In this document: one piece after another, positions 301 through 601 of the stretch
Position numbering within the stretch: position 1 is the first letter of the stretch
Layout: every line of letters starts with the position of its first letter
Assembly (NCBI RefSeq): GCF_003334255.1
Contig: NZ_QOWU01000202.1
Strand: one strand, 5' to 3'
Length of the DNA: 655 nt
From: Escherichia coli
GTDB lineage: Bacteria > Pseudomonadota > Gammaproteobacteria > Enterobacterales > Enterobacteriaceae
Notes under the pieces: model-generated
What the model saw: the letters and a program-made list of their open reading frames with translations, nothing else
Databases searched by the model: none
Told to the model about the DNA's origin: nothing
Translations under genes and position numbers: made by a program

Positions 301-328
301 GTTTTGCTGATGCGCCGTATCGTCGCAG

Positions 329-340
329 TATTCCCGCATT
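329..340 (+). repeat. Copy 1 of the direct repeat GTATTCCCGCAT.
   Basis: The 9-mer TTCCCGCAT occurs exactly at 331-339 and 444-452. With flanks the match is 12/13: gtaTTCCCGCAT versus gttTTCCCGCAT. Confidence 0.4.
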
Positions 341-441
341 AACAGAGACCTCAGCCAGACACTGGACCTCCTGCGCGAGTGTGTGGGGATAATCAAAAAC
401 GATGCACACCGGGCTTTCCACGTTTTCAGGTAACGTGAGCG

Positions 442-453
442 TTTTCCCGCATG
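442..453 (+). repeat. Copy 2 of the direct repeat GTTTTCCCGCAT.
   Basis: Same repeat as the 329-340 copy, 113 bp downstream of copy 1 in the non-coding spacer. Confidence 0.4.
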
Positions 454-524
454 GCCGCCTGTCCGGTGCGGTGGTGGAAGAAACCGGATAAAACAACCAT
501 ATTGTGTAAATATCAATCAAACAA

Positions 525-579
525 GACGCTGCTGTGTGAATTCTGAAAAATCACAGCGGTCATTATGCGTCAGTTTTTA
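525..579 (+). other. Nested inverted repeat. The outer arms are GACGC (525-529) and GCGTC (567-571). The inner arms are GCTGTG (531-536) and CACAGC (552-557), which contain TGTGA-N11-TCACA. A T5 run follows at 575-579. It could be a terminator- or attenuator-like structure or a dyad operator.
   Basis: The complementarity was found by eye. The inner stem has 6 Watson-Crick pairs, extendable with 2 G-U pairs, and a 15-nt AT-rich loop. The outer stem has 5 bp and a 9-nt asymmetric bulge. The T-run sits 3 nt after the outer stem. It is not a canonical intrinsic terminator: the loop is long, there is a bulge, and the T tract is short. Confidence 0.25.
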
Positions 580-581
580 AC

Positions 582-587
582 AGAGGA
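582..587 (+). promoter_or_regulatory. Shine-Dalgarno AGAGGA for the gene starting at 602.
   Basis: It is a near-consensus SD. The 14-nt spacing to ATG 602 is on the long side. A GTG at 597 would have ideal spacing, but its frame gives a less protein-like peptide. Confidence 0.4.
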
Positions 588-601
588 CGTCAGAAAGTGA
601 C

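Follow-up and report, generated by a model that had tools for sequence, protein, structure and literature searches.

A probable structured RNA element bordering the moron slot behind the lysis genes of lambdoid phages

Introduction

We analyzed a 655-nt stretch of Escherichia coli DNA (contig NZ_QOWU01000202.1 of assembly GCF_003334255.1; hereinafter the window), which begins inside the lysis gene Rz and ends just within the gene for a small terminase subunit (terS). For the interval between these two genes, positions 301–601, the original prediction had seen no credible gene and had proposed a cis-acting element, a small RNA (sRNA) or a scar of moron loss instead. We find that positions 310–488 correspond to an element of about 180 nt, hereinafter X, which recurs across lambdoid phages, including lambda itself, and is very probably a non-coding structured RNA on the plus strand. 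Further, X forms the right-hand border of the moron slot behind the lysis cassette in these phages. We tentatively propose that it acts in cis on the late mRNA as a processing or stability element, and assign this reading as a whole, structure and role combined, a probability of about 0.5.

Conservation, position and distribution of element X

The blastn comparison of 301–601 with phage genomes, which the original prediction had called for, recovered matches in at least 433 phage records. Sepvirinae match the full interval, whereas lambda-like, HK97-like and other lambdoid phages match only about 310–490, and alignments place sharp borders on this shared segment (ATGCGC... to ...ACCGGA) with unrelated flanks on either side. 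In the relatives X lies downstream of Rz with variable morons between the two, and in all 110 of the 110 IMG/VR loci with an Rz homologue it is found on the same strand as, and downstream of, that gene. It adjoins at least three terminase types, some of them unrelated to each other, at distances of 0.1–1.5 kb from cos or terS. Mosaic junctions occur at both edges of X and also within it, with ST2-8624 combining a lambda-type 5′ half with a Sepvirinae-type 3′ half.

Three alignments were used: A1; A2, a MAFFT alignment of 91 distinct X variants from annotated phages and from 120 further IMG/VR loci collected by pattern scan; and A3, a realignment to a covariance model. The variants are 166–188 nt long, with lengths that are not spaced by threes. 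The covariance model built from the A2 variants matches the window at 309–499 with 169 bits and places X of lambda at 46,866–47,043, where it fills the intergenic space between bor and p78. In E. coli K-12, it finds X in the DLP12 prophage between borD and ybcV, where the K-12 annotation has no feature at the X copy. Among the Sakai prophages, X was detected in Sp9 by the covariance model, while its core motif is present in Sp10 and Sp12. When genome contigs were scanned, most matches were due to chance and the true ones came only from Escherichia species and Raoultella. Full-length copies scoring more than 200 bits on two tiny contigs, L151 (Pseudomonas yangonensis, 351 bp) and L156 (Thiomicrorhabdus heinhorstiae, 468 bp), most likely represent E. 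coli or lambdoid contamination of those assemblies. One IMG/VR locus, L023, carries tandem copies at 5055–5245 and 6005–6195, each following a different plus-strand moron; both are situated between Rz and a Nu1-type terS and both keep 45 of 45 predicted pairs.

A covarying fold on the late-operon strand

RNAalifold applied to A2 yields the long-range helices P1 and P2 and the 3′ hairpin P7, and sub-alignments add P3, P4, P5 and P6. The resulting fold comprises seven helices with 45 pairs, 44 of which are standard in the window. Mapped onto the window, its parts are the following:

317–405, plus strand: domain 1, a long hairpin with interruptions; mapping of the consensus to the window gives 28 standard pairs out of 29
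317–323/399–405, plus strand: P1, about 98.5% paired
329–343/379–391, plus strand: P2, about 98.5% paired
349–354/371–377, plus strand: P3, about 98.5% paired, with one mismatch (T351·C374)
355–357/363–365, plus strand: P4, apical, CCAG-ACA-CUGG, from the consensus mapped to the window
411–413/446–448 (span 411–448), plus strand: P5, which encloses P6, from the consensus mapped to the window
419–423/433–437, plus strand: P6, variable in sequence between lineages yet paired, with all 4 pairs altered on both sides
461–467/483–489, plus strand: P7, a hairpin with a conserved 15-nt loop, GCGGUGGUGGAAGAA; changes on both sides at 5 of 8 pairs (MAFFT) or 7 of 7 (A3)

The case for this fold is comparative. 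Across the 45 pairs of the MAFFT alignment, 97.0% of the cells hold a standard pair, as against 32–61% when the partners are slid by 1–3 columns, and 15 pairs show changes on both sides; these observed values were reached by none of 500 column shuffles. The compensatory changes are plain to see in P7, which occurs as UCCGGU/ACCGGA, UCCUGU/ACAGGA and CUCGAU/AUCGAG, and in P6, the sequence of which is wholly different between lineages while its pairing is kept. In A3 the figures rise to 97.5% paired cells and 20 pairs with changes on both sides, though this realignment is fitted to the model and hence leans towards structure. The strand can also be read from the pairs: G·U cells number 395 against 37 A·C cells, and pairing on the minus strand would reach only about 88%. 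This excess indicates that the pairing operates on the plus strand, i.e., the sense strand of the late operon. Thus, X combines a compensated structure with location on the transcribed strand, as is seen in structured cis-regulatory or processing RNAs in general, and we consider it very probable that X is a non-coding structured RNA element.

An alternative hairpin, GUGUGC/GCACAC (about 379–384 with 404–409), is disfavored, as a compensatory change in the lambda-type versions keeps P2 and breaks the alternative. Lineage effects dominated a search for pseudoknots by covariation of single columns, and only one tentative 3-bp pairing came through, joining the CGCC-type junction ahead of P7 to the 5′ part of the loop of that hairpin (A3 columns 170–172/189–191, window about 455–457/471–473), which alternates between G·U/C-G and U-A/U·G among few independent lineages. 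As a separate observation, the P7 hairpin region at 462–487 resembles a stretch inside Rz at 130–155 (TCCGGTACCGTGCGTGAAGCCACCGG versus TCCGGTGCGGTGGTGGAAGAAACCGG, 73% identical). The Rz stretch is an inverted repeat, and the resemblance is probably due to chance.

Comparison with known RNAs, promoters and terminators

The Rfam scan suggested by the original prediction came back empty for X: with Rfam 15 at permissive thresholds the window gave two chance hits only (E = 1.4 and 7.8), both outside X, and the X copies of lambda, PhiR55_1, S107 and P13374 had no match. The literature searched likewise yielded no described RNA at the position of X, and the family appears to be undescribed. A scan of the window for intrinsic terminators came up empty on both strands; the sequence behind P7, AUAAAACAACC, has no U-tract. 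A scan of the window for sigma-70 promoters also found none. Hence, of the cis-acting elements that the original prediction had in mind, a covarying RNA structure on the late-operon strand is present at 310–488, while a terminator, i.e., a hairpin with a U-tract, is missing from both strands. The suggested small RNA stands in so far as a structured RNA is there; lacking a promoter and a terminator of its own, X more likely belongs to the long late transcript or arises from it by processing.

Enterohemorrhagic and enteropathogenic E. coli (EHEC/EPEC) prophages encode sRNAs such as AgvB/AsxR, StxS and the Pas sRNAs, which resemble X in being non-coding and in holding conserved positions beside late-region moron slots. 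Unlike X, they measure 50–80 nt, each come with a promoter and terminator, associate with Hfq and are represented in Rfam (RF02702, RF02703 and others), whereas X occupies the Rz–terS slot and has no Rfam hit. X is not one of them: AgvB/AsxR and StxS lie at the PR′/stx slot and the Pas sRNAs either precede the holin gene or lie amid the structural genes (PMC4104026; bioRxiv 10.64898/2026.05.13.724894). No Hfq peak from crosslinking and analysis of cDNA (CRAC) is listed at X in Sakai Sp5. Nor does X correspond to the Hfq peaks EcOnc10–12 as far as these could be placed, for the Sp9 and Sp10 peaks fall on a minus-strand terminator immediately to the right of X (EcOnc coordinates, given on NC_002695.1, were corrected for an assembly-version shift of about 135 nt calibrated on EcOnc03). 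Thus, X shows none of the own promoter, terminator and Hfq crosslink that mark an Hfq-dependent sRNA. As to the peaks themselves, EcOnc11 and EcOnc12 (Tree et al. 2014) coincide with the minus-strand Rho-independent terminator ACUGCUGUGACUCCAACACGGCAGUUUUUUU at L137:6150–6210 in Sp9 and its equivalent in Sp10. This terminator forms the 3′ end of a small convergent gene of the ECs_1788 type and abuts the right edge of X; the site may give rise to a 3′UTR-derived sRNA. For EcOnc10, which belongs to Sp12, no position was found in the assembly version used.

Proposed role of X in the late transcript

X is situated where the translated lysis and moron genes give way to untranslated or antisense sequence. 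Its architecture, a 29-pair interrupted hairpin with an A-rich loop and two smaller hairpins, together with this position, fits a module for processing or 3′ stabilization of mRNA. We accordingly propose, as part of the reading given about 0.5 at the outset, that X acts in cis on the late mRNA. It would form part of the Q-dependent late RNA and share the strand of S-R-Rz. The P1–P4 hairpin (about 29 bp) and its A-rich internal loop, AAUCAAAAAC, could then offer cut sites for RNase III or RNase E. After such a cut, the lysis and moron segment of the mRNA would end in a protective 3′ hairpin and be detached from what follows, namely terS in the window and antisense genes and cos in lambda. With 29 pairs, P1–P4 has the form of an RNase III site, i.e., a coaxial duplex of about 20 bp or more with internal loops, which is a matter of resemblance only.

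The closest parallels are the RNase III signals of the T7 R1.1 type and lambda sib, which like X are loop-interrupted hairpins on the sense strand between transcript blocks with no promoter or terminator of their own. X is unrelated to them in sequence and exceeds them in size, with two domains and seven helices over about 180 nt; its unpaired loops are conserved, and its cleavage is only predicted. RNase III sites within the late transcript of lambda are reported by Daniels et al. 1988, as cited in PMC7547250. The antitermination RNAs put of HK022 and nut of lambda are likewise cis-acting structured RNAs in lambdoid transcripts, but they are positioned just downstream of early promoters, whereas Q already serves the late transcription. 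The likeness of the apical hairpin of X to boxB does not extend beyond the first bases (GCCCUGA in lambda), and neither the GNRNA pentaloop nor a boxA is present.

Several observations weigh against this reading. The specific function of processing site or 3′ stabilizer follows from architecture and position, and we hold it only tentatively. The minimum free energy of the single sequence is ordinary (z = +0.86 against shuffles) and neither strand beats its shuffles, so that the case for the fold rests on the comparative data. These come from variants linked by descent and recombination, which means that the cell counts overstate the number of independent events, and A3 is model-fitted. A minus-strand frame over domain 1 is open in about 76 of the 91 variants with a ratio of nonsynonymous to synonymous changes (pN/pS) of about 0.4, and coding constraint may thus be at work in some lineages. 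Lastly, a CRISPR interference screen scored lambda bor and p78, the neighbors of X, as non-essential (PMC10695390); X was not among its targets.

The main alternative to this cis-acting role is that X is freed from the late transcript as a stable non-coding RNA acting in trans, for instance by using the P7 loop, GGUGGAAGAA, and the A-rich loop to bind or titrate a protein of the host or the phage, with consequences for lysis timing, host shut-off or defense. The multi-domain fold with strongly conserved unpaired sequences is consistent with such a function, as are its conservation independent of both neighbors, the separate X copy that accompanies each of the two plus-strand morons of L023, and the wealth of Hfq-bound sRNAs in nearby prophage regions (PMC4104026). 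Yet no conserved promoter or terminator is found beside X, the Hfq data place no peak on it in Sp5 and locate the EcOnc peaks of Sp9 and Sp10 on the adjacent minus-strand terminator, and no target or partner can be named. We therefore regard a trans-acting X as unlikely. If it were so, lambda, Stx phages and many E. coli prophages would release an excised RNA of about 180 nt that sequesters a host RNA-binding protein, nuclease or defense factor late in infection, and bor and other antisense morons would have been obliged to accommodate their promoters within the loops of this RNA.

Minus-strand coding potential over X

That the conservation of X is instead due to a gene can be weighed from the open reading frames (ORFs). 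Within 301–601 of the window, the plus strand has two ATG-initiated ORFs of 29 and 31 aa (402–491 and 451–546) and a GTG-initiated one of 34 aa (288–392), while the minus strand has a single ATG ORF of 24 aa and two TTG-initiated ones of 98 and 156 aa running antisense into Rz. The PhiR12_3 annotation has no feature inside the interval. In relatives, ORFs of 37–67 aa on the plus strand and 53–78 aa on the minus strand have been annotated over X, in addition to the 86-aa orf48 discussed below. Each frame, taken singly, is free of stops in at most 36 of the 91 variants, and of about six indel events in X about five shift the frame and one is a multiple of three. Thus, the view of the original prediction that the interval holds no credible gene agrees with the ORF inventory, and the ORFs annotated in relatives are broken in many lineages rather than conserved as genes. 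Neither orf48 nor the minus-strand ORF displays an intact frame with indels in threes, and the fold is kept where the ORFs are broken, with 27 of 29 domain-1 pairs in lambda, 45 of 45 in L023 and 44 of 45 in the window.

The stronger of the coding readings takes X as a minus-strand gene for a small protein of 53–78 aa with the core CIVFDY..RTL..PVGLRSLL.REY.DDTAH. This ORF is annotated in 1W, D2, PhiR55_1 and PhiR49_1, and the pN/pS of its frame, whose openness across domain 1 was noted above, is 0.39–0.44, the lowest or near-lowest among the six frames, though the variable sites are few and also lie within RNA helices. Against it, X of lambda, DLP12 and the 933W type has a stop within the ORF, two lineages have 1-nt indels that disrupt it, and the window carries a 2-nt deletion that does the same. 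Only about 22 of the 91 variants have a minus-strand ATG ORF that reaches 50 aa, and in 29 variants this ORF measures 11 aa. Its termini are not conserved, the C-terminus being set by sequence to the left of X, and it has no PHROG match. Such a gene would also leave the G·U over A·C excess and the compensatory pairs unexplained. Hence, we consider this reading improbable.

A further plus-strand mini-ORF of 10 codons, MR[C/R/G]IVAVF[P/L][H/Y]*, spans 310–342 and starts at the left edge of X, 9 nt past the Rz stop. It begins with ATG in 68 of the 91 variants and with CTG or GTG in bor-type X, and lambda has a broken version. A Shine–Dalgarno sequence is lacking, and the variation falls on codon positions 1 and 2.

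The moron slot, bor and element X

The occupants of the space between Rz and X differ widely. As the original prediction stated for lambda, bor follows Rz on the opposite strand, and it lies precisely between the Rz stop and the homologue of window position 310 onward. The same holds for bor in HK630, 1H12 and the 933W-like ST2-8624. The slot is taken by a Rha-like gene in P13374 and Lyz12581, by KilA-N and a hypothetical gene in S107 and PhiR49_1, and by other plus-strand ORFs in 1W, D2 and L023. Across the IMG/VR loci the distance from Rz to X is 0–50 nt in 27 and extends up to 1.7 kb with intervening morons. X is thus the right-hand border of this slot, and is kept with or without bor.

X is also tied to bor through the promoter of the latter, for the bor moron occupies the slot on the left side of X and is served by a promoter within the 5′ half of the element. 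The annotated HK630 bor promoter (TGGACA-15-TACAAT, minus strand; L007:1515–1541) lies there, with equivalents at window 325–351 and lambda about 46,882–46,908. The substitutions that make the hexamers are confined to the unpaired J1/2 junction and the P2/P3 internal loop, leaving the helices intact. Phages without bor lack both hexamers, and so does the window, which reads TACTGC rather than TACAAT at the −10 position. The 5′ half of X further accompanies iss, the bor homologue, on ColV plasmids. In pAPEC-O2-211A-ColV (L171, match at 1201–1295), one of 628 such plasmids in total, the order is an Rz1 remnant, iss (minus strand), the 5′ half of X and finally IS2. This arrangement on ColV-type conjugative plasmids is a fossil of the lambdoid Rz–bor–X region.

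These observations offer a basis for the proposal that the element works as DNA, either as the pac site of a headful terminase or as a promoter like that of bor in lambda. The location of the bor promoter inside X, the company of iss on plasmids, the start of terS 113 nt past X and a large terminase subunit (TerL) annotated as T4-like headful would be in keeping with it. Nevertheless, X stands beside unrelated terminase types and 1.46 kb from cos in lambda, the window has the altered −10 hexamer and no sigma-70-like site, and the G·U bias indicates an RNA. We hence judge a function at the DNA level to be about as improbable as a minus-strand gene.

The original prediction had also considered a scar from moron loss. 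A related view would have X as a neutral homology linker, left by such a loss or kept through recombination only, and the mosaic junctions at the edges of X and inside it (ST2-8624), as well as the exchange of morons exactly at its left border, lend it some appeal. However, no remnant of bor was detected in the window by blastn with lambda 46428–46865 or tblastn with Bor, which gave only chance 8-mers and E = 17, and there is no trace of the P13374 cassette in it. X has the same form whether the slot is empty or occupied, and lineages of 72–85% identity would not have preserved 97% pairing, with changes that are compensatory and biased to G·U, if the sequence were neutral. The slot of the window at 301–309 is simply empty, not a scar, and we consider it very unlikely that X itself is a scar or a neutral linker.

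The weakest reading, that the interval is the plus-strand protein gene orf48 (phrog_6954, RefSeq name "Rz-like spanin"; 86 aa in VT2-Sakai, plus strand, L002:3288–3548, equal to window 288–546) with the window holding a frameshifted pseudogene, can be dismissed almost entirely: although PHROGs lists it as a family and the annotations of ST2-8624 and Lyz12581 contain shorter versions that share its TGA (window 544–546), the window breaks the frame at 34 aa, starts and lengths vary among relatives (37, 67 and 86 aa), pN/pS in this frame is 1.0–1.4, five of the seven codons that differ between the window and VT2-Sakai in 487–546 change the amino acid, and orf48 is non-existent outside Sepvirinae. 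As the real Rz and Rz1 lie upstream, the name "Rz-like spanin" over X is probably a propagated mis-annotation.

Genomic setting of the window and the terS leader

Over its full length, the window is 100% identical to Escherichia phage PhiR12_3 (PV340552.1, 30013–30667), and it is about 92% identical to VT2-Sakai and other Shiga toxin (Stx)-converting Sepvirinae. Its features are, from left to right:

1–300, plus strand: 3′ part of Rz (i-spanin), left border of the slot; Pfam PF03245 with E = 7e-50 on the full gene (L001), annotated as endopeptidase Rz
53–238, plus strand: Rz1 (o-spanin lipoprotein), nested in Rz; Pfam PF06085 with E = 3e-21
301–309, no strand: empty moron slot, from comparison with relatives, without bor remnant
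310–488, plus strand: element X, very probably a structured RNA of about 180 nt, from alignments, covariance-model match, fold, covariation and G·U bias
489–601, plus strand: terS leader, in Sepvirinae-type phages only, from alignment A1
602–655, plus strand: start of the small terminase subunit gene, right border; phrog_370 with E = 7e-118 on the full ORF (L001:5602–6453), and terminase annotation in relatives

The gene for TerL directly follows that of the small subunit. Neither subunit has a Pfam-A match at E <= 0.01 (L001:5602–8140), and both are recognized by PHROGs only. In the phages compared in A1, the segment 489–601 is found only in Sepvirinae-type phages and always directly upstream of this type of terS; accordingly, we treat it as a lineage-specific terS leader. 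Its first part, 489–546, is the most variable portion of the interval, while a hairpin at about 529–559 and the stretch 547–601 up to the terS ATG are nearly invariant, with few variants available. The z-score of the leader fold (−0.97) is not significant. A pac site for the annotated headful terminase, in line with the packaging site that the original prediction had listed, could lie within 489–601 or in terS; the literature searched held nothing usable on the pac site of 933W-like phages.

Implications

A structured RNA inside a phage operon is of a familiar kind, while the family of X itself appears undescribed. Should the element prove real, lambda (between bor and p78), the Stx phages and the DLP12 prophage of K-12 would all carry a conserved RNA structure that is absent from Rfam 15. 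This would also mean that the "Rz-like spanin" name of phrog_6954 has been laid over a non-coding RNA, and we flag that annotation here. As X is present in lambda, its function is directly testable by recombineering. Finally, if real, X as the right edge of this slot, a classic site of moron insertion, would explain how bor, iss, Rha-like and KilA-N genes have been swapped at an identical junction behind the lysis cassette.

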